From Halioglobus sp. (GTDB lineage Bacteria; Pseudomonadota; Gammaproteobacteria; Pseudomonadales; Halieaceae): a stretch of DNA of 64,000 nucleotides. Each line of letters starts with the position of its first letter. Positions within the stretch are counted from its first letter, which is position 1. Below are positions 15,854 through 49,284 of the stretch, one piece after another. Under the pieces are notes generated by a model that saw nothing but the letters and a program-made list of their open reading frames with translations, did not search any database and was not told the origin of the DNA. Made by a program: the position numbers and the translations under genes. The stretch is from the NCBI GenBank assembly GCA_047650635.1, contig JBLHNQ010000005.1:18942-82941 (forward strand). Direction: 5' to 3'.

Positions 15854-15925
15854 AGAGATCGTTACAAGCGACAGGTGATATAGTCTGACGCAATTAAACA
15901 ATAACAACACCCATGGAGGTGTGAA

Positions 15926-22718: not shown

Positions 22719-23399
22719 CTATCCGAAAAACGTTGGGTTAAAGTAATGGCGGCCGCTGCGGATATCAAGCATATAGTCCACCAAGTGTTTGTAATCTGCC
22801 TCGCTGTTGACCAGATCAATCTCACTGGCATTCACTATAAGCAGAGGAGCGCCATCGTAATATAGAAAGAACTCACTGTACACTTCGTTTAAGCGTTCAA
22901 GGTAGTCGCGCGCCATGCCCTGTTCATAGGAGATTCCGCGATTTTCGATGCGCGAAATGAGTACATCGGTGGAAGCCTGCAGATAAATGACCAGATCGGG
23001 GCGTGGTGCATCGATGGTCATCTGCTGGTAGACCTTGTCATAGAGCTGATATTCGTTGCTGTCCAGAGTGATTCTGGCAAATAAGGGGTCTTTTTCAATC
23101 AAAAAATCAGAGACTCGCACCGGCTCAAAAATATCTGCCTGACGCATATCCTGAATTTTTTGGCTGCGCTGGAAGAGGAAGAATAGCTGAGTGGCCAGCG
23201 CTGATTGTTTGCCATTTTTGTAGAAATTCTCCAAAAAGGGGTTGTCCCCGGCATCTTCCAGCAAGGTCTGGTAGTTGAAGCTGGTGGCCAGTTTTTTTGC
23301 CAGAGTGGTTTTGCCCACACCGATGGGACCTTCAATCGCGATAAAAGGTGGCGGGGTTCGCCCTCTCAAATCTACGTTAATGGCAGGATTGTCTGACAT
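22719..23399 (-). CDS. deoxynucleoside kinase family protein
   Basis: P-loop [19 protein letters not shown], dNK-like ERS/RGI segments, 226 aa. Confidence 0.75.
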
Positions 23400-23414: not shown

Positions 23415-23927
23415 CTACTTGGAATCTGCGACGTCACGCAATGACACGTTTGTTTTTACCAGGTCGCCCCGGGGACATTGTGCTAATAATGACCCAAGAC
23501 CCCCTAGGCTGGGAAGCTCCATTTTCTTATCGGCGATTTCAGCCAGGGGATAGAGAACAAAATTACGCACAGCCATACGCGGGTGAGGTACCTGCAGCGT
23601 CGCGGCATCAATGACTTCGTCTCCGAATAAGAGAATGTCTATGTCCAGAGTGCGAGCTGCCCAACGTTCACCTCTGACACGGCCGCAATTCATTTCGATG
23701 GCCTGCGTTGCGTTGAGTAGTTCCAGAGCCCCCAATGAAGTGGTCAGCTTAAGTACGGCGTTGAGGTAGTCGGCTTGCTTGCCAGGACCAACCGCTGCGC
23801 TGCTATAGGCACTGGAGACGGCGTCTATACGGCAGTGGGGGAGGGCTGCAATTTCCATTAATGCTGCGCGAAGTTGGCTGGGCGGGTCGTTGAGATTGCT
23901 GCCCAGAGCGAGATAGGCTGGTGTCAT
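23415..23927 (-). CDS. folK: 2-amino-4-hydroxy-6-hydroxymethyldihydropteridine diphosphokinase
   Basis: AYLALGSNL...RTLDIDILLFG...HPR motifs; 4-nt overlap with pcnB. Confidence 0.92.
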   Translation of the reverse strand: MTPAYLALGSNLNDPPSQLRAALMEIAALPHCRIDAVSSAYSSAAVGPGKQADYLNAVLKLTTSLGALELLNATQAIEMNCGRVRGERWAARTLDIDILLFGDEVIDAATLQVPHPRMAVRNFVLYPLAEIADKKMELPSLGGLGSLLAQCPRGDLVKTNVSLRDVADSK

Positions 23928-25183
23928 GTCTGTTTTGGCTTACGCACCCGCCCGTTTGGCTGCGCCTGACTCAGACGCTCTTCGAAAGGCAGAGTTTGAA
24001 AATGAGTCCACCAATCACCAAGTCCATGAGTTTCCTCGCCGGCCTGTTCGCGAAGTAGCAGGAAGTCGTAGGCGGCACGAAAGCGACGATGGTCAACAAG
24101 TTCTGCGGCTTTGCGGCCCTGTTTGCGTTGCAGGCGTAGCTGGAATTCCCATATTTCGCGCATGGGCTGACTGAATCGCTTGGGGATCGAAATTCTTTGA
24201 ACAGCTTGTGAGACAGCCTGCTGTCCGCTTTTGTGCATGGCGACCATAGGCGGATCTCCACGTTCCTGCATCTTACTGGACAGTGATGACACAACCGGCC
24301 AGAGTATGGCTGCCAGAATAAAAGCTGGCGTCACATGCTTGCCCTCGCTAATTCGCTTGTCGGTGTTTGCCATGGCGGCTTGTAGCAGCACGCGGTTCTC
24401 GGGTTTGTCGTCCAGGTGACGGCAGGTATCGGGAAACAGGCTCTGTAGCAGGCCGTATTTCAGTAGCATGTCCAGGGTACTCTCGGCGTAACCTGCGAGA
24501 AACAGTTTAAGAAATTCATCGAACAAGCGTGCGGCGGGAATATCGTGTAACAGGGTGGCGCACTGTGGAATCGCCGCCGCTGTAGTGGGTTCAATATCAA
24601 ATTTTAATTTAGCAGCAAAACGCAAAACTCGCAGCATTCTGACCGGGTCTTCGCTGAAGCGCACTGCGGGATCGCCAATAATGCGAATGTTGCGTGCTTG
24701 CAGGTCCTGCAGGCCACCAACTTGGTCAAACACTTCAAAATTTCCCGAATCGTAATATAGAGCGTTGACAGTCAGGTCCCGGCGCACTGCGTCTTCTTCA
24801 AGGGTGCCGTAAACATTGTCTCTTAACAACAGGCCACTTTCGGCTTGATGTGAATGCGAGCCTGCTTTGCCTTTATCGCCGCTGTCGTGGTGTCCTCTAA
24901 ATGTGGTGACTTCTATGATCTCTCGGCCAAAGCGCACATGCACGATGCGAAAACGTCTGCCTATGATTCGGGAGTTACGAAACAGCTCATGTACCGCCTC
25001 AGGTGTCGCATCGGTTGCAATATCGAAGTCTTTTGGGTGGTTGCCCAACATCAGGTCGCGAACGGCCCCGCCAACGAGGTAGCTCTGATAGCCACTGCTG
25101 CGTAACCGCGACATGACTTTCAATGCACCGTCGCTAATATTTTTGCGGGAAATACAGTGCTGATCGCGTGGGATTACCTTCAA
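23924..25183 (-). CDS. pcnB: poly(A) polymerase I
   Basis: VIPRDQHCISRKNIS..ALKVM..LVGGAVRDLMLG..PKDFD aligns with E. coli PcnB. The conserved N-terminus forces a non-ATG (TTG) start at 25183; E. coli pcnB is also known to use a non-canonical start. Confidence 0.93.
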   Translation of the reverse strand: MKVIPRDQHCISRKNISDGALKVMSRLRSSGYQSYLVGGAVRDLMLGNHPKDFDIATDATPEAVHELFRNSRIIGRRFRIVHVRFGREIIEVTTFRGHHDSGDKGKAGSHSHQAESGLLLRDNVYGTLEEDAVRRDLTVNALYYDSGNFEVFDQVGGLQDLQARNIRIIGDPAVRFSEDPVRMLRVLRFAAKLKFDIEPTTAAAIPQCATLLHDIPAARLFDEFLKLFLAGYAESTLDMLLKYGLLQSLFPDTCRHLDDKPENRVLLQAAMANTDKRISEGKHVTPAFILAAILWPVVSSLSSKMQERGDPPMVAMHKSGQQAVSQAVQRISIPKRFSQPMREIWEFQLRLQRKQGRKAAELVDHRRFRAAYDFLLLREQAGEETHGLGDWWTHFQTLPFEERLSQAQPNGRVRKPKQT

Positions 25184-25274
25184 GCCGAGCCTGCCTATGG
25201 GGTAGATTTAAGAGCGATGAAGCTTATCACAGAAGTTCTGCTAAAGCCTGAAAGGGTGAGGGCACAAGATAGGT

Positions 25275-25457
25275 AATGGGGAGAACAGTGCTCCCCCAAT
25301 TCAGCCTTTACGGTCTATTAGTTTTATTGTTAGCGTTTGTTGTTTTTATACTTATACAAGAGCTGGAAATCGAGGGGGAAAGCTTCTTCCCCATCCAGGT
25401 CCGTTATCGGAGTTATTATTTTTATTACGGCGGAACTTATTATTATTTTTGCTGCCG
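25275..25457 (-). ncRNA. crcZ: candidate CrcZ-like sRNA (Hfq/Crc-titrating, CbrB/sigma-54 dependent); ends approximate
   Basis: Lies downstream of a near-consensus -24/-12 promoter. Four exact AAnAAnAA motifs on the minus strand (about 25450-25437, 25428-25412, 25349-25334, 25331-25316). Internal hairpin GGGGAA/TTCCCC and 3' hairpin GGGGAG-cactgtt-CTCCCC (25297-25278). Same cbrB-pcnB position as crcZ in Pseudomonas. Confidence 0.6.
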
Positions 25458-25467
25458 CTGGATATAA

Positions 25468-25483
25468 AGCAGATAACGTGCCA
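25468..25483 (-). promoter_or_regulatory. sigma-54 (-24/-12) promoter
   Basis: Minus strand reads TGGCAC-GTTAT-CTGCT versus consensus TGGCAC-N5-TTGCW, one mismatch. Confidence 0.75.
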
Positions 25484-25558
25484 GAAAATATAATTATAAT
25501 ATAAATCAGTAGGTTACATTATATTGACACCATGAGGAGGCAGTAATGTAGAGCCCTG

Positions 25559-25588
25559 TGTTACCGATATACTCTCTATTATGTAACA
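25559..25588. promoter_or_regulatory. enhancer-like palindrome TGTTAC-N18-GTAACA (candidate CbrB binding site)
   Basis: Perfect hexamer inverted repeat 76-105 bp upstream of the -24 element, with an AT-rich (bendable) tract between. The half-sites equal those of the CbrB palindrome reported in P. aeruginosa (TGTTAC-N14-GTAACA), but the spacer here is 18. Confidence 0.6.
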
Positions 25589-25594
25589 GCCTGA

Positions 25595-27025
25595 TCAGGC
25601 GGTAACGCTACTGGCGTTGCCATCGCCGCTGGTAGTGGTGTTATTTTTACGTCTTGGTATGCCAAATCGTTGCCTGCGTTCCCATAGGCATTTGCGGCTC
25701 ACGCCCAGTTTTTGGGCGAGTTTGGTCTCACTCATTGTGTCCTGGTGCTCAAGAACAAAACGCTGGAAATAATCTTCTAAAGAGAGGTCTTCATGGGGCT
25801 CGGTGGAGGGTGGCCTGTTGCCATTTGCCGGGCTTCGAATACGGCTCTCACTGCAAAGCTCGAGATCTATACCCAACGCATCGTTGTCAATTTCATCTCC
25901 ATCGCTGAGGATCACCGCTCGCTCGATGGCATGCTGTAGTTCGCGCACGTTGCCCGGCCACTGATAGGTGGTTATGGCCTGTATGGCCAGTGGGGAGAGG
26001 TGTTTTGTGTTTTTATTTAGTGCTGCAGTGTGGTGGGCCAAGAGCCATTCGGCGAGGTGCAGTATATCTTTGCCTCGCGCGCGCAGGGGAGGCAGTGAAA
26101 GGCGTAAGACGTTGATGCGATAAAATAAATCTTGTCGAAATTGGCTTTCGGCCGCTAGTGTTTGCAGGTCGCGATGGGTCGCGCAGATAAGTCTGACATC
26201 TACCTTGCGCGAGTGAACCGAACCAATGCGGCGAATTTCCCCCTCCTGTATAAACCGCAGTAGCCGCGCCTGTGCCTCCATGGGTAACTCGCCAATTTCA
26301 TCGAGAAATAAAGTGCCTCCGTCGGCCGCTTCAATAAGGCCCATGCGACTGGCATTAGCGCCAGTGAACGCACCCTTTTCATAACCGAACAGCTCCGACT
26401 CAATAAGCGTGTCTGGAATTGCCGCACAATTTATCGAAATCAGCGTGTTAGCAGAGCGCCGGCTGTGCTCGTGCACACTTTTTGCCACCAATTCTTTACC
26501 CGTACCTGTTTCGCCCAGAACCAGCACTGTAGCATCGGTGGGGGCGATTTTTTCGATGTGGCCAAAAAGGGACAACATGGCTGGGCAATTACCTATAATA
26601 CCTACTGCCTTGCCCGATTTATTCTCTTTTCCTGATTTGCCCAGAGCTTGCTCGCGGGACGATTGTTCGGTGGGGTGGTCGGTAATAATGCGTTGCACGG
26701 CTCGAATCAAATCGCTGTGGTCAAAGGGTTTGGCAATATAGTCGACCGCCCCCATACGCATGGAATCGACTGCAGAGCGCAGGCTGGCATAGCTGGTCAT
26801 GATTAAAACCGGGACGTCGCCCGCTTTGCGGATTAGGTCTGTGCCCGGGGCGCCGGGAAGGCGCAGGTCGCTAATGATGAGATGAAAGCGTGTCAGCACG
26901 TGTCTGGACTCTGCCTCTTGCACCGAGCCTGCTTCTTCTACCAGATAGTTGTTACGTTCGAGCAAGCGACGCAGTGCCGATCGGATAACCGATTCATCTT
27001 CGACAATGAGAATCTTCTGCATCAA
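25595..27025 (-). CDS. cbrB: sigma-54-dependent response regulator (NtrC family), CbrB
   Basis: REC domain, AAA+ Walker [15 protein letters not shown] motif ([15 protein letters not shown]), C-terminal HTH. Lies downstream of an SSS-domain histidine kinase. Confidence 0.88.
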
Positions 27026-27133: not shown

Positions 27134-30100
27134 CTAGACCAGAAATGCCGCAGTGTAAGTGCTGCTGGGCAATTGCAGGCTAACCCGGGTTCCAGGAAAT
27201 TCACCTTCGCTAAGCGGGCTTTTTAAATGAACGCTGCCGTTCATGTCTTCCATTATGCTGTAGACCAAGGCCAGCCCAAGTCCGGTGCCTTCTCCGGGAT
27301 CTTTTGTGGTGAAGAAGGGTTCGAATACCTGGGTCAGGAGGTGCGGTGGCACGCCACAGCCATTGTCTTCAATGTCGGTGGTAATCAGGTCTCCATCGCG
27401 ACTTGCAACAATTGAAACATGTCCTTCATCCTGACAGGCATGCCGTGCATTGCCCAGTAAGTTGATAAACACTTGTAGTAATCGTTGGCTGTCTGCAAGT
27501 ACCACGAGCTCTCTGTCACAATGGTTGTTAAACCTTACCGGCTTGGCCTGATGGTCCAGTTGCAGCAAGTTAATGGCTTCATCAACACAGTCCGCAAGAT
27601 TTGAGGGGCTCAGCCTGGTTTCGCCTGATTTGGAGCCTGTGTGTGAGAAGTTGACGAGTGATTCCACGATACGACTGACACGGTCGGTTTGAGCGAGGAT
27701 GTCGTGGGCCATGTGGCGAATTTCGGCGGGCTCAGTTTCATACTCCAGATTTTGAGCTAAACAGGCAATGCCGGTGACCGGGTTGCCGATTTCGTGGGCG
27801 ACACCAGCCGCGAGACGGCCGATAGATGCCAGTCTTTCGCTGTGTATTAATTCTTCTTCCAGCAATTCCGAATGACTAATGTCTTCTACCAGAATAACGC
27901 GATCTTCGTTGTATTCGGTATCGGAACCAGAGTCCCTGTTGGCGCTCGCAGCGATGGCGGCACGGTGAAGACTGACCCACAACCCTCGCTTTTTGTCATC
28001 GGAGTTACTCAGGCCTACCTGATGCTTCATTACTGAGTCTGCTTCACCTGCTGCGAAATTGGTAAGAATGTCGCACCAGGGCTGAGGGAGTGAGTCGAGA
28101 AGTGAGCCAAGCACCGCCTGGGAGGAAATCCCCGTAATGTTTTCCATGGCGCGGTTCCACATTAGCAGCTCGCCATAGCTGCCCAGAGAGCACACCCCTA
28201 TGGGCAGTTTATTCAAGGTCTGTCGATAGTGTCGGCGCAGGTTATCGAGATCGGCAGCCATTCCGGTAAATTGCATCTGCGCCCGGTCCAAATTTCGTTC
28301 AATCAAATTGATGTCTTCGGTGCCCTCATACAGTTCAGGGCGAAAGGGGATGCAGCGGGTGAGTATGCTGTGGGCCACCGCGGGGCCGAGCAGCCCGGAC
28401 AAATTGGCTTCAATGCGATTGCGCAAGCGGCGCAGTGCATAAGGTCTGGATTCATCAGAATTAAACTGCAGATCAGCCAACGCCCGGCGGATTTCGTCGT
28501 TAGCAGCTTTTTCGCCCAGCGCGTTAGCCAGCTGCTCGGCAAATTCGCTGGGGCTGTGTAGTGACAGCAATTGTCGGGTAGGCCGATTGAGGTCATCCAT
28601 TGAGCAAATGTCTGCCGCGATCACTTCCTCTGCATGCGCTGGTGTAAGAAGTGAAACCACTGCAAATAAAACCGTATTGATTGCCAGAGACACCATCGTT
28701 GCAGCGGTCCAGATACTCTCGATGTCACCCATCCATGTGGGATAGAAATAGTCGAGAAAATTTGGTTCAAAGTTGCTGAATACAGGCAGCAGCATACTGA
28801 GAAACCATACTGTCAGACCCGCGCCAAGGCCGGTTAACAGCCCTTTTCGGTTGGCTGCAGGCCAGTACAGCGTGGCTACAACGCCTGGGAGAAATTGCAA
28901 TGTGCCTATAAAGGCCACCAGGGCGAGTTGACTTAGGCTCTCCTTGCCACTAATCACAAGATGGAATACATAGCCGCCTAGAATCAGTAAGGTAATAAAT
29001 GAGCGGCGCATCCATTTCAGCTGCGTGTACAGGTTTTTGGTGGGGTCAATTTGTAAGTTATGCAGCGGCAGAACCAAATGGTTTACACACATGTTGGCCA
29101 GTGCCAGAGTCGTAACGATGATGGTGGCGCTCGCGGCGGACAACCCGGCCACAAATGCCGCCACACTCACGTGGGTTGACTCCAGGATGAGGCCGATGGC
29201 AAGCCCGGTGTATTCCAACGGCAGCGATTGTTCCAGTTTTATTCCCGCCCAGGTCACGGGCAAAATTGGCAGGCTCAGCAGCATCAGGTATAGGGGGAGC
29301 CCCCACGCCGAGGTGTGCAGGTCACGGCTGTCGGTATTTTCTGCGAAGGTCATGTGAAAGATGTGCGGCATGCAGACGGCGCCGGCAAAAAAGATCAGTA
29401 GCAGGCTGCGGGCTGTGTCGCCGCGCATGGGCCTGTCCAGGATATTATGGATGGCGGGTCTTTGTGCCAGCCAATCCTCCAACCCGCTAAAGCCACCGAA
29501 AACACCGTATATTGAGGCAAAAAATAAAATAAACAGCGCGGCCAGTTTTACCAATGATTCGAAAGCGATCGCCGTGACCAGGCCGGTATTGCGATATTGG
29601 GATGAGACATGGCGTGTGCCAAAAAGGATGGAGAACACAATGATGATGATACAAAAAAGTAGAGCCAGACCATCCTGACGTTGACCTGTAGATTCGCCAA
29701 AATTTGTGCCTCCAGCCAGAATATTGATGCTGTTGGCAACAACCTGAATTTGCAGGGCGAGTAGAGGCAGCAGAGTGAGGCACATGGCAATGGTGATTGC
29801 CGCCCCTACTCGTTGGCTGCGAAATCGAAAAGTGAGAACATCCGCCAGTGAGCTCAGCTGGTAGATTCGGCAAAGCCTTAGCAGTGGCATGAGCAGCACG
29901 GTTGCCATCACAAACATCATCACCGCACCCAGATAGTAAAGGAGAAAGCTATAACCATAGTTGTAGGCAAGCGCTATTGTGCCATTAGTGGCCATTGCAC
30001 CAGCGAAGACACCAAGAGACAGTACGTACACAGCGGGGTGGTGGGTTATCTTTTTGGGGATGGTGCCGCGGTCTGCAAGATAGGCGACACCGAATAACAC

Positions 30101-30151
30101 CGTGAGGTAGGCCACGATAAACAGTACGATTTGGGTCAGGCTATAACTCAT
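27134..30151 (-). CDS. cbrA: sensor histidine kinase with N-terminal SLC5/SSS transporter-like domain, CbrA
   Basis: About 500 aa polytopic SSS-like N-terminus, a PAS-like segment, H-box AAGVAHEIGNPVTGI and an HATPase (DNGCGV..GTGLGL). Start set to the ATG at 30151 (MSYSLTQIV), which overlaps the stop of the upstream small ORF. Confidence 0.88.
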   Translation of the reverse strand: MSYSLTQIVLFIVAYLTVLFGVAYLADRGTIPKKITHHPAVYVLSLGVFAGAMATNGTIALAYNYGYSFLLYYLGAVMMFVMATVLLMPLLRLCRIYQLSSLADVLTFRFRSQRVGAAITIAMCLTLLPLLALQIQVVANSINILAGGTNFGESTGQRQDGLALLFCIIIIVFSILFGTRHVSSQYRNTGLVTAIAFESLVKLAALFILFFASIYGVFGGFSGLEDWLAQRPAIHNILDRPMRGDTARSLLLIFFAGAVCMPHIFHMTFAENTDSRDLHTSAWGLPLYLMLLSLPILPVTWAGIKLEQSLPLEYTGLAIGLILESTHVSVAAFVAGLSAASATIIVTTLALANMCVNHLVLPLHNLQIDPTKNLYTQLKWMRRSFITLLILGGYVFHLVISGKESLSQLALVAFIGTLQFLPGVVATLYWPAANRKGLLTGLGAGLTVWFLSMLLPVFSNFEPNFLDYFYPTWMGDIESIWTAATMVSLAINTVLFAVVSLLTPAHAEEVIAADICSMDDLNRPTRQLLSLHSPSEFAEQLANALGEKAANDEIRRALADLQFNSDESRPYALRRLRNRIEANLSGLLGPAVAHSILTRCIPFRPELYEGTEDINLIERNLDRAQMQFTGMAADLDNLRRHYRQTLNKLPIGVCSLGSYGELLMWNRAMENITGISSQAVLGSLLDSLPQPWCDILTNFAAGEADSVMKHQVGLSNSDDKKRGLWVSLHRAAIAASANRDSGSDTEYNEDRVILVEDISHSELLEEELIHSERLASIGRLAAGVAHEIGNPVTGIACLAQNLEYETEPAEIRHMAHDILAQTDRVSRIVESLVNFSHTGSKSGETRLSPSNLADCVDEAINLLQLDHQAKPVRFNNHCDRELVVLADSQRLLQVFINLLGNARHACQDEGHVSIVASRDGDLITTDIEDNGCGVPPHLLTQVFEPFFTTKDPGEGTGLGLALVYSIMEDMNGSVHLKSPLSEGEFPGTRVSLQLPSSTYTAAFLV

Positions 30152-30317
30152 CGGAAGGCCTGGAGCGCTGGTTCCAATAGGCGGCAATAATGATTAAAAG
30201 CCATACCTGATAGGGGCGATACCATTGTGATCCACTGTGGCTGATCCACTGTTCTATCATGGGGAATAAAATAAAAGTGATGCCCACAATCAGTAGCAGC
30301 GCGCGATTAATATACAT
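30141..30317 (-). CDS. cbrX: small membrane protein, cbrX-like (58 codons; below the ORF-track cutoff)
   Basis: Hand translation: MYINRALLLIVGITFILFPMIEQWISHSGSQWYRPYQVWLLIIIAAYWNQRSRPSDEL*. It has two hydrophobic segments, and its stop overlaps the cbrA start (GATGAGTTATAG). Confidence 0.6.
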   Translation of the reverse strand: MYINRALLLIVGITFILFPMIEQWISHSGSQWYRPYQVWLLIIIAAYWNQRSRPSDEL

Positions 30318-49268: not shown

Positions 49269-49284
49269 TGGCACTTACATTGCC
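49269..49284 (+). promoter_or_regulatory. sigma-54-type -24/-12 element upstream of the DUF167-corA pair
   Basis: TGGCAC-TTACA-TTGCC, about 45 bp upstream of the first ATG of the DUF167 gene. Confidence 0.5.

Follow-up and report, generated by a model that had tools for sequence, protein, structure and literature searches.

A predicted compact CrcZ-like RNA gene in the cbrB-pcnB spacer of a Halieaceae-like marine gammaproteobacterium

What occupies the spacer between cbrB and pcnB in a marine gammaproteobacterium outside the Pseudomonadaceae? In Pseudomonas, Hfq binds A-rich motifs, Crc stabilises the complexes, and the RNA CrcZ sequesters both, which relieves catabolite repression (PMC10832556). 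Reviews describe the CbrAB-CrcZ system as exclusive to the Pseudomonadaceae (PMC8871633, PMC6296734, PMC10832556), and no paper linking CrcZ, CbrAB or Crc to Cellvibrionales was found in the literature searched. The DNA considered here is a 64,000-nt stretch from Halioglobus sp. (Halieaceae; contig JBLHNQ010000005.1), called the window throughout. On its minus strand, a 411-bp spacer separates the cbrB stop codon (TGA, 25597..25595) from the start of the pcnB open reading frame (ORF) at 25183. In the NCBI taxonomy, Halieaceae belong to Cellvibrionales, not to Pseudomonadales. In the GTDB taxonomy, Halieaceae and Cellvibrionaceae share an order with the Pseudomonadaceae, and the surprise of meeting a CrcZ circuit in Halieaceae is tempered by this.

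An earlier note had proposed that the spacer encodes a CrcZ-like small RNA (sRNA) with a sigma-54 promoter and a CbrB-type enhancer. As far as computation can tell, the proposal is supported: the neighbouring genes are orthologous, the promoter geometry matches, and the RNA body stays conserved between drifting flanks. That a real and conserved feature lies between cbrB and pcnB is confirmed. We put at about three in four the probability that the spacer of this marine, Halieaceae-like gammaproteobacterium contains a gene for a CrcZ-family regulatory RNA, homologous by position to crcZ of Pseudomonas. The parts of the locus, which is read on the minus strand, are as follows.

25559..25588, minus strand: CbrB-type enhancer TGTTAC-N18-GTAACA, unique in the window
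25504..25516, minus strand: IHF-like site TAACCTACTGATT, whose reverse complement AATCAGTAGGTTA has one mismatch to WATCAANNNNTTR
25468..25483, minus strand: putative sigma-54 (-24/-12) promoter TGGCACGTTATCTGCT, the only exact TGGCAC-N5-YTGCW in the window
25365..25457, minus strand: predicted sRNA module 1, matched by the nhmmer module profile at E=3e-19 and near-invariant in relatives
25275..25353, minus strand: predicted sRNA module 2, nhmmer E=1.2e-9, which aligns with module 1
25221..25233, minus strand: candidate pcnB promoter, an extended -10-like box TCTGTGATAAGCT that forms a conserved island, TGTGMTARRMT, in relatives

The sigma-54 element that had been read at 25483..25468 is present, and TGGCAC-N5-xTGCw is kept in all relatives bearing the RNA. 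From the usual distance between -12 and +1, transcription is predicted to start at about 25458-25456. The enhancer half-sites lie at 25588..25583 (TGTTAC) and 25564..25559 (GTAACA). A search for TGTTAC-N10-22-GTAACA returned this palindrome as the single occurrence in 64 kb, and none of 100 shuffles gave any. In P. putida, crcZ, crcY and PP2810 follow an experimentally defined F1-R1-R2 scheme, TGTTAC-N12-14-GTAACA-N15-19-GTAACA, in which R2 is the most important subsite for crcZ (PMC8871633, PMC6296734); the Pseudomonas crcZ promoter also depends on IHF (PMC6296734). Judged by its sequence elements, the window promoter matches this scheme in its half-sites, IHF-like site and -24/-12 element. 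Geometry was compared over 21 promoters in 20 loci, with distances counted from the T of TGGC. R2 (GTAACA) stands at -79 to -81 in 20 of the 21 and at -90, one helical turn further, in the remaining one (L084); R1 (GTAACA) is found at about -101/-103 and F1 (TGTTAC) at about -121/-125. An IHF-like site at -32/-33 is present in 8 of the 21 related promoters.

Lineages differ in the half-sites that they retain. Cellvibrionaceae-like loci have F1, R1 and R2, loci L084-L088 have R1 and R2, and loci L001, L002 and L020 have F1 and R2 at a spacing of N36. In the window and its four closest relatives, an F half-site at -104 is paired with an R2-equivalent half-site at -81, and this N18 spacing is identical in relatives with 82-93% CbrB identity. 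The enhancer had previously been described as having a spacer 4 bp longer than usual. The N18 spacing is real and is strict in the four closest relatives; however, because a 19-column gap opens right after TGTTAC when the window is aligned with L001, L002 and L020, the palindrome is best read as F1 brought beside R2 by an 18-19-bp deletion of a degenerate R1. A GTAAC at 25517..25513 was considered as a third R half-site and was not counted, being common to the 93% relative only. Elsewhere in the window, a one-mismatch sigma-54-like element, TGGCACTTACATTGCC (49269-49284, plus strand), lies between a glutamine-synthetase-like gene and corA.

The predicted RNA is about 185 nt long (25457..~25275) and is built from a module that occurs twice. 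Across both strands, the window has 69 matches to AANAANAA; nine of them fall within 127 nt of the minus strand (25450..25324), where about 0.04 would be expected, and the local enrichment exceeds 200-fold. These nine form four blocks of 4-5 ARN triplets, at 25450..25437, 25426..25413, 25347..25337 and 25331..25324, and the four A-rich motifs reported previously can be read directly. Both hairpins reported with them were recovered as well, GGGGAAG/CUUUCCCC at 25392..25375 and GGGGGAG/CUCCCC at 25297..25278. Module 1 comprises the first two blocks, a conserved box GGACCUGGAUGGGG, the first hairpin, which is predicted by RNAalifold, and a weak U-containing tail. Module 2 comprises the last two blocks and the second hairpin (GGGGGAGC..CUCCCC), and is kept in L161-L164, L081, L001 and L002. 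The module profile found no further copy in the 64 kb beyond the spacer gene.

Alignment of the compact forms defines a unit of about 90 nt. Its order is an AAnAAnAAnAA block, a GC-rich linker, an AAUAAnAAUAA block, 10-14 nt, and then the box and hairpin; the 3' part reads (G)GACCUGGRUGGGGAAG, a loop, and CUUCCCC. The consensus fold leaves the A-rich blocks unpaired and retains both GGGG/CCCC hairpins. Hairpin variants that preserve pairing occur, such as GGGGAGA/UCUCCCC in L005 and GGGGAAAA/UUUUCCCC in unit 2 of L001, while covariation is limited overall. Single-sequence folds told little: their z-scores were -1.6 and -0.2, and pairings across the two GGGG/CCCC elements appeared as alternatives. 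A 5' stem around the first A-rich block, despite its appeal in single folds and in the RNAalifold fold, was dropped because it was no better than shuffled flanks (a mean best helix of 3.9 pairs versus 3.5 in the shuffles, over 15 sequences). The tail behind hairpin 1, CCCCCUCGAUUUCC, is weak and U-containing, and a stronger version, CCCCUUCAAUUUCUUUGUC, is present in L163 and L164. On this evidence the RNA could exist as a species of about 95 nt, ending at hairpin 1, and as one of about 185 nt.

The spacer had been described as lacking a credible ORF, and no conserved ORF was found in it on either strand. Opposite-strand ORFs of 63 and 55 aa were rejected as coding, as neither is conserved; the 63-aa frame is kept only in the 93% relative and broken elsewhere.

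Is this arrangement peculiar to one genome? Comparison loci came from one genome scan and one metagenome scan with CbrB and from three look-ups of close homologues. These gave 25 loci (24 distinct sequences) with orthologous cbrB, of which 23 had sufficient downstream DNA for a spacer RNA to be judged. Downstream of cbrB, 21 of these 23 loci have a sigma-54 promoter followed by a cluster of A-rich motifs, in genomes and metagenomes alike; the alignment across relatives that the earlier note had proposed as a check upholds its reading. The exceptions are a metagenome-assembled genome (MAG) of Cellvibrio (L006) and one of Endozoicomonadaceae (L012), which have cbrA-cbrB without a downstream A-rich sRNA gene. 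The RNA gene may have been lost or relocated in these two. In L012, an extra ORF lies between cbrB and pcnB. Synteny of cbrA, cbrB, spacer and pcnB is found wherever the contig permits, except in L006 and L010, where no pcnB occurs within the fetched DNA.

Among relatives with 82-93% CbrB identity, the enhancer, the promoter, both units and the box preceding pcnB are almost unchanged, whereas the stretches between these elements diverge, which points to selection on each element. The module profile, searched with nhmmer against 161 sequences (1.1 Mb), matched only cbrB-downstream spacers, including that of L082 (E=2e-9), which was outside the training set.

The RNA gene varies considerably in size. 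In eight loci (L005, L020, L082 and L084-L088), a single unit of about 90 nt makes up the whole gene and ends in a U-rich tail; examples of its hairpin and U-tract are CCCCAUUUUUAUUU in L084 and CCCCAUGUUUCUUUUUG in L086. Two units stand back to back, in about 185 nt, in the window, L081 and L161-L164, and two units with about 110 nt between them are found in L001 and L002. Large forms of 300-400 nt with at least 10 motifs occur in Gilvimarinus agarilyticus (L003, 5700-6100) and in L007 and L013; these Cellvibrionaceae-type forms end in a different terminator, CGGGAAAGC..GCUUUCCCGUUUU. In L004 (5382-6467) and L083 (3870-4942), the cbrB-pcnB interval contains a tandem pair of A-rich sRNA genes, each with an F1-R1-R2 enhancer and a sigma-54 promoter, a CrcZ/CrcY-like duplication in situ. 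In L010 (7310-7440), a sigma-54 promoter, A-rich blocks and a hairpin GGGGAGCTTCGGCTCCCC are found at the end of the contig, 1.9 kb downstream from cbrB; in this lineage, the RNA gene is displaced from cbrB.

How does this RNA relate to CrcZ itself? At the gathering threshold, Rfam returned no sRNA match in the window or in 13 related loci, as had been foreseen when the RNA was suggested to escape covariance-model annotation. A permissive search of the 601 nt around the spacer gave CrcZ (RF01675) at 23.9 bits (E=2e-4), and no other family scored meaningfully. The alignment places module 2 on the 3'-terminal module of the model (positions ~283-368), with about 170 model positions deleted; this last CrcZ module consists of two A-rich motifs followed by the GGGGAGCUUCGGCUCCCC hairpin. 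The L010 sRNA has GGGGAGCUUCGGCUCCCC at its end, exactly the hairpin of the Pseudomonas consensus, and matches CrcZ positions 281-367 at 25.3 bits (E=6e-5). A permissive search of seven related loci gave a weak CrcZ match in L081 alone. Together with the genomic position and the promoter, the matches to the 3' module of CrcZ argue for homology with CrcZ and not mere analogy. The earlier description of a functional analogue of about 180 nt is thus kept in part: a compact conserved body with a predicted length of about 185 nt is there, and it is better regarded as a positional homologue than only as an analogue. By the criterion of the family model, the window RNA falls outside RF01675, and it appears to be a divergent, miniaturised relative of CrcZ.

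Several observations weigh against assigning the RNA to the CrcZ family. Its score of 23.9 bits is far below the gathering threshold of 95 bits, and standard annotation consequently misses it; the large Cellvibrionaceae forms (L003, L007 and L013) had no CrcZ match even at E<=1. The half-site centres of the enhancer are 24 bp apart, compared with 20-21 bp in Pseudomonas, and so differ in helical phase. A terminator scan found no canonical terminator on the minus strand in the window, and hairpin 2 has no U-tract. As neither window hairpin is followed by a canonical U-tract, the 3' end of the RNA is not defined by the sequence, and the RNA may not be independent of pcnB transcription. That the spacer is transcribed is a prediction from its sequence. 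On the partner side, tblastn with P. aeruginosa Crc (a query identical to the PDB 4JG3 sequence) and with a presumed E. coli Hfq sequence found neither crc nor hfq in the 64-kb window, and no named member of Halieaceae or Cellvibrionaceae was among the best 120 of 4341 matches to Crc-like proteins.

Could the sigma-54 promoter and the A-rich region instead form a cis-acting leader of pcnB, driven by CbrB or gated by Hfq, with no free-standing sRNA? Some read-through into pcnB is conceivable, as pcnB follows on the same strand and no canonical terminator stands between hairpin 2 and pcnB in the window. However, the one-module relatives L084 and L086 end in a hairpin with a clear U-tract, the large forms L003, L007 and L013 have their own distinct terminator, and the distance from the RNA to pcnB ranges from about 90 to more than 400 nt of unconserved sequence. 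In addition, the extended -10-like box at 25233..25221 belongs to a conserved island about 40-60 nt upstream of pcnB, amid sequence that is variable across relatives; it is probably the pcnB promoter, and its conservation suggests that pcnB has a promoter of its own. An independent sRNA is also known from the same position in Pseudomonas (PMC8871633), and a pcnB leader is unlikely. Origin of the RNA from the 3' untranslated region of cbrB, by read-through and processing only and with non-functional sigma-54-like and enhancer-like motifs, is very improbable. Across the 21 promoters, sequence and exact spacing are kept for both the -24/-12 element and the half-sites while the DNA between them diverges, a sign that the promoter itself is under selection. 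Part of the CrcZ of Pseudomonas stems from read-through that begins at PcbrB (PMC8871633), and the minus strand showed no terminator behind cbrB; such read-through would be an addition to the promoter, not an alternative to it.

The RNA might also be a conventional base-pairing sRNA, or act on some other partner, so that its A-rich tracts would not be decoy sites for Hfq and Crc. The failure to find Crc for this lineage among the best 120 matches leaves room for this idea, as the partners are deduced. Yet the repeated (ARN)n blocks are the only strongly conserved single-stranded elements, and from one lineage to another their number ranges from two to more than 10 without a change in character, a pattern expected of a multivalent decoy rather than of a specific antisense seed. 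The 3' module is, moreover, homologous to that of CrcZ, and we consider a base-pairing role distinctly unlikely. A chance collection of motifs, finally, could be imagined in an AT-rich intergenic spacer, and the 601-nt stretch around this one (25100..25700) has 44% GC compared with 52% for the window. Nevertheless, each class of motif is unique or more than 200-fold enriched locally, and the positions are conserved in independent genomes and metagenomes; conservation already refutes this explanation, and its probability is negligible.

Taking the spacer to encode a CrcZ-family RNA, its most likely function is to titrate Hfq, alone or together with Crc, as a decoy induced by CbrB. We infer where the RNA begins and ends and, by analogy with Pseudomonas, that it depends on CbrB and RpoN, binds Hfq/Crc and plays the part in physiology described next. 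When preferred carbon sources are exhausted, the CbrX/CbrA transporter-kinase would activate CbrB, which would bind TGTTAC-N18-GTAACA about 80-105 bp upstream of the -24 element. With the DNA bent at the IHF-like site, CbrB could then activate sigma-54 RNA polymerase at TGGCAC-N5-CTGCT. The transcript, starting at about 25457, would run for about 185 nt through both modules, or for about 95 nt if it ended at hairpin 1, and would expose four single-stranded (ARN)4-5 blocks kept apart by two stable GGGG/CCCC hairpins. Each block may bind to the distal face of an Hfq hexamer, giving up to four sites if Pseudomonas is a guide. The decoy would draw Hfq, and Crc if the lineage has it, off A-rich sites at ribosome-binding sites in mRNAs for catabolism and uptake, and catabolite repression would be relieved as a result.

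The surrounding genes provide the context for this proposal. Their order is sfsA, gluQ, cbrX, cbrA, cbrB, the RNA spacer, pcnB, folK, a dNK-like kinase gene, panB and panC. The series gluQ-cbrX-cbrA-cbrB-[RNA]-pcnB-folK-panBC is, we take it, the Pseudomonas arrangement (P. aeruginosa map, PA4724-PA4730). The genes nearest to the spacer are listed below.

30141..30317, minus strand: cbrX-like small membrane ORF, 58 aa, matching PDB 10ED chain X (CbrX) end to end (E=2.9e-9)
27134..30151, minus strand: cbrA orthologue, 1005 aa, from alignment to PDB 10ED and Pfam domains
25595..27025, minus strand: predicted cbrB orthologue, an NtrC-family sigma-54 enhancer-binding response regulator with Response_reg, Sigma54_activat and AAA_lid domains
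23924..25183, minus strand: pcnB, poly(A) polymerase I (NCBIfam TIGR01942, 509 bits)

CbrA has the layout of an SLC5-like transporter domain with 13 transmembrane segments followed by STAC, PAS, HisKA and HATPase domains. Its residues 1-604 align end to end with chain A of PDB 10ED (E=3.3e-173), the cryo-electron microscopy structure of the Pseudomonas CbrA SLC5-STAC domains (PMC13488458). Pfam detected PAS, HisKA and HATPase_c, and about 13 hydrophobic segments were counted. The Pfam SSF model gave no match on the CbrA N-terminus, and the identity of the transporter was settled by the PDB comparison. The cbrX stop overlaps the cbrA ATG by 11 nt, and cbrB lies directly downstream of cbrA. The locus thus has the three marks of a CbrX-CbrA-CbrB module, namely fused CbrA domains, an overlapping cbrX and an NtrC-type CbrB, and on these grounds its genes are judged to be true orthologues of Pseudomonas cbrX, cbrA and cbrB. 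A 60-aa cut-off in ORF lists would miss the 58-aa cbrX (30141-30317, minus strand). The nearest relatives of CbrB are proteins of Halieaceae (Halioglobus, Parahaliea and Pseudohalioglobus) at 77-78% identity and metagenomic proteins at up to 93%; they are annotated generically (HydG/NtrC family), and none is labelled CbrB.

Downstream of pcnB, folK, panB and panC were identified with NCBIfam and Pfam models. A 226-aa dNK/thymidylate-kinase-like gene (22719-23399, minus strand) lies between folK and panB, and the closest relatives have the same gene. To our knowledge, this gene is no part of the Pseudomonas or E. coli arrangement.

Which partners would such an RNA have? Among the matches listed, the Crc-like family is found in many marine Oceanospirillales-type genera, almost all of its members being annotated as exodeoxyribonuclease III. 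They include Parendozoicomonas, Litorivicinus, Neptuniibacter, Marinobacterium, Neptunomonas, Kistimonas and Motiliproteus, as well as Hahellaceae (P0241-P0253, P0420-P0534). The aligned representatives have a basic patch, KRRKRRE, and the catalytic glutamate of the nucleases is replaced by D, N or Q. This spread across marine genera contradicts the view that Crc is confined to Pseudomonas and Azotobacter or close relatives. The Halieaceae RNA may be a Crc-independent Hfq sponge.

An A-rich stretch, AAACAATAACAACA (15897-15910, plus strand), lies about 6 nt upstream of the GGAGG Shine-Dalgarno sequence of a small membrane ORF, which is presumably DUF4212-like. This ORF precedes a VC_2705-family Na+/solute symporter gene and is divergent from acs. 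The stretch looks like an Hfq/Crc-type target site, with about 0.5 such coincidences per window expected by chance.

The copy series invites a broader, tentative reading, which we hold to be possible yet rather doubtful: that the ~90-nt unit is ancestral to all CrcZ-type decoys and was duplicated to tune their capacity, that CbrXAB-CrcZ is an ancient circuit of marine heterotrophs, and that the Halieaceae RNA is perhaps a sponge for Hfq that works without Crc. The series would then run from one unit in several Halieaceae and Cellvibrionales lineages, through two in the window and six motifs in Pseudomonas, to at least 10 motifs or tandem genes in Cellvibrionaceae. If this were true, CbrXAB-CrcZ would be no speciality of Pseudomonas but an ancient circuit for carbon hierarchy.

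What is newly recognised is the extension of the CbrXAB-sRNA circuit to sister families, with a modular, miniaturised and previously unannotated RNA. A complete cbrX-cbrA-cbrB-sRNA cassette is present at the same chromosomal position in Halieaceae and Cellvibrionaceae, which are abundant coastal marine heterotrophs and polysaccharide degraders, and reverse catabolite repression through Hfq decoys may shape carbon use in the ocean. The natural minimal versions of CrcZ (~90-185 nt, with two to four sites) would be convenient for work on the structure and stoichiometry of Hfq/Crc-RNA complexes. There is also an annotation gap, as these RNAs escape the Rfam model and the proteins carry generic names (HydG/NtrC family for CbrB, exodeoxyribonuclease III for Crc-like proteins).

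Among known systems, the closest is Pseudomonas CrcZ. Like it, the predicted RNA lies between cbrB and pcnB on the same strand, and has in silico a sigma-54 promoter, TGTTAC/GTAACA half-sites (N18 here, N12-14 there) and an IHF-like site. Both have repeated single-stranded AAnAAnAA (ARN) motifs, predicted as four blocks in the window, and both have a 3' module of two A-rich motifs and a GGGGAGC..GCUCCCC hairpin, which can be aligned to the CrcZ model. Pseudomonas CrcZ has five to six A-rich motifs, whereas the window RNA has fewer, four, and it is about 185 (or 95) nt long and not about 400 nt. It differs further in its clear two-fold modular repeat, in the lack of a U-tract after the last hairpin, in an enhancer cut to two half-sites at N18, and in a host that belongs to Cellvibrionales and not to Pseudomonadaceae. 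CrcY and CrcX of Pseudomonas and the CrcZ/CrcY pair of Azotobacter vinelandii are likewise CbrB- and sigma-54-dependent decoy RNAs with A-rich motifs, paralogous to one another. Duplicated genes also occur among the relatives of the window, in tandem in L004 and L083. CrcY and CrcX lie elsewhere in the genome. These RNAs of Pseudomonas and A. vinelandii are about 370-400 nt long, whereas the one gene of the window is internally duplicated. A more distant parallel is provided by CsrB, RsmY and RsmZ, which are also induced by two-component systems and carry repeated short protein-binding motifs between hairpins, in numbers that vary with lineage. There, however, the motif is GGA in hairpin loops, bound by CsrA/RsmA, in contrast to the ARN repeats for Hfq, which are single-stranded; the type of promoter and the protein partner also differ, and the two groups of RNA have no sequence relationship.

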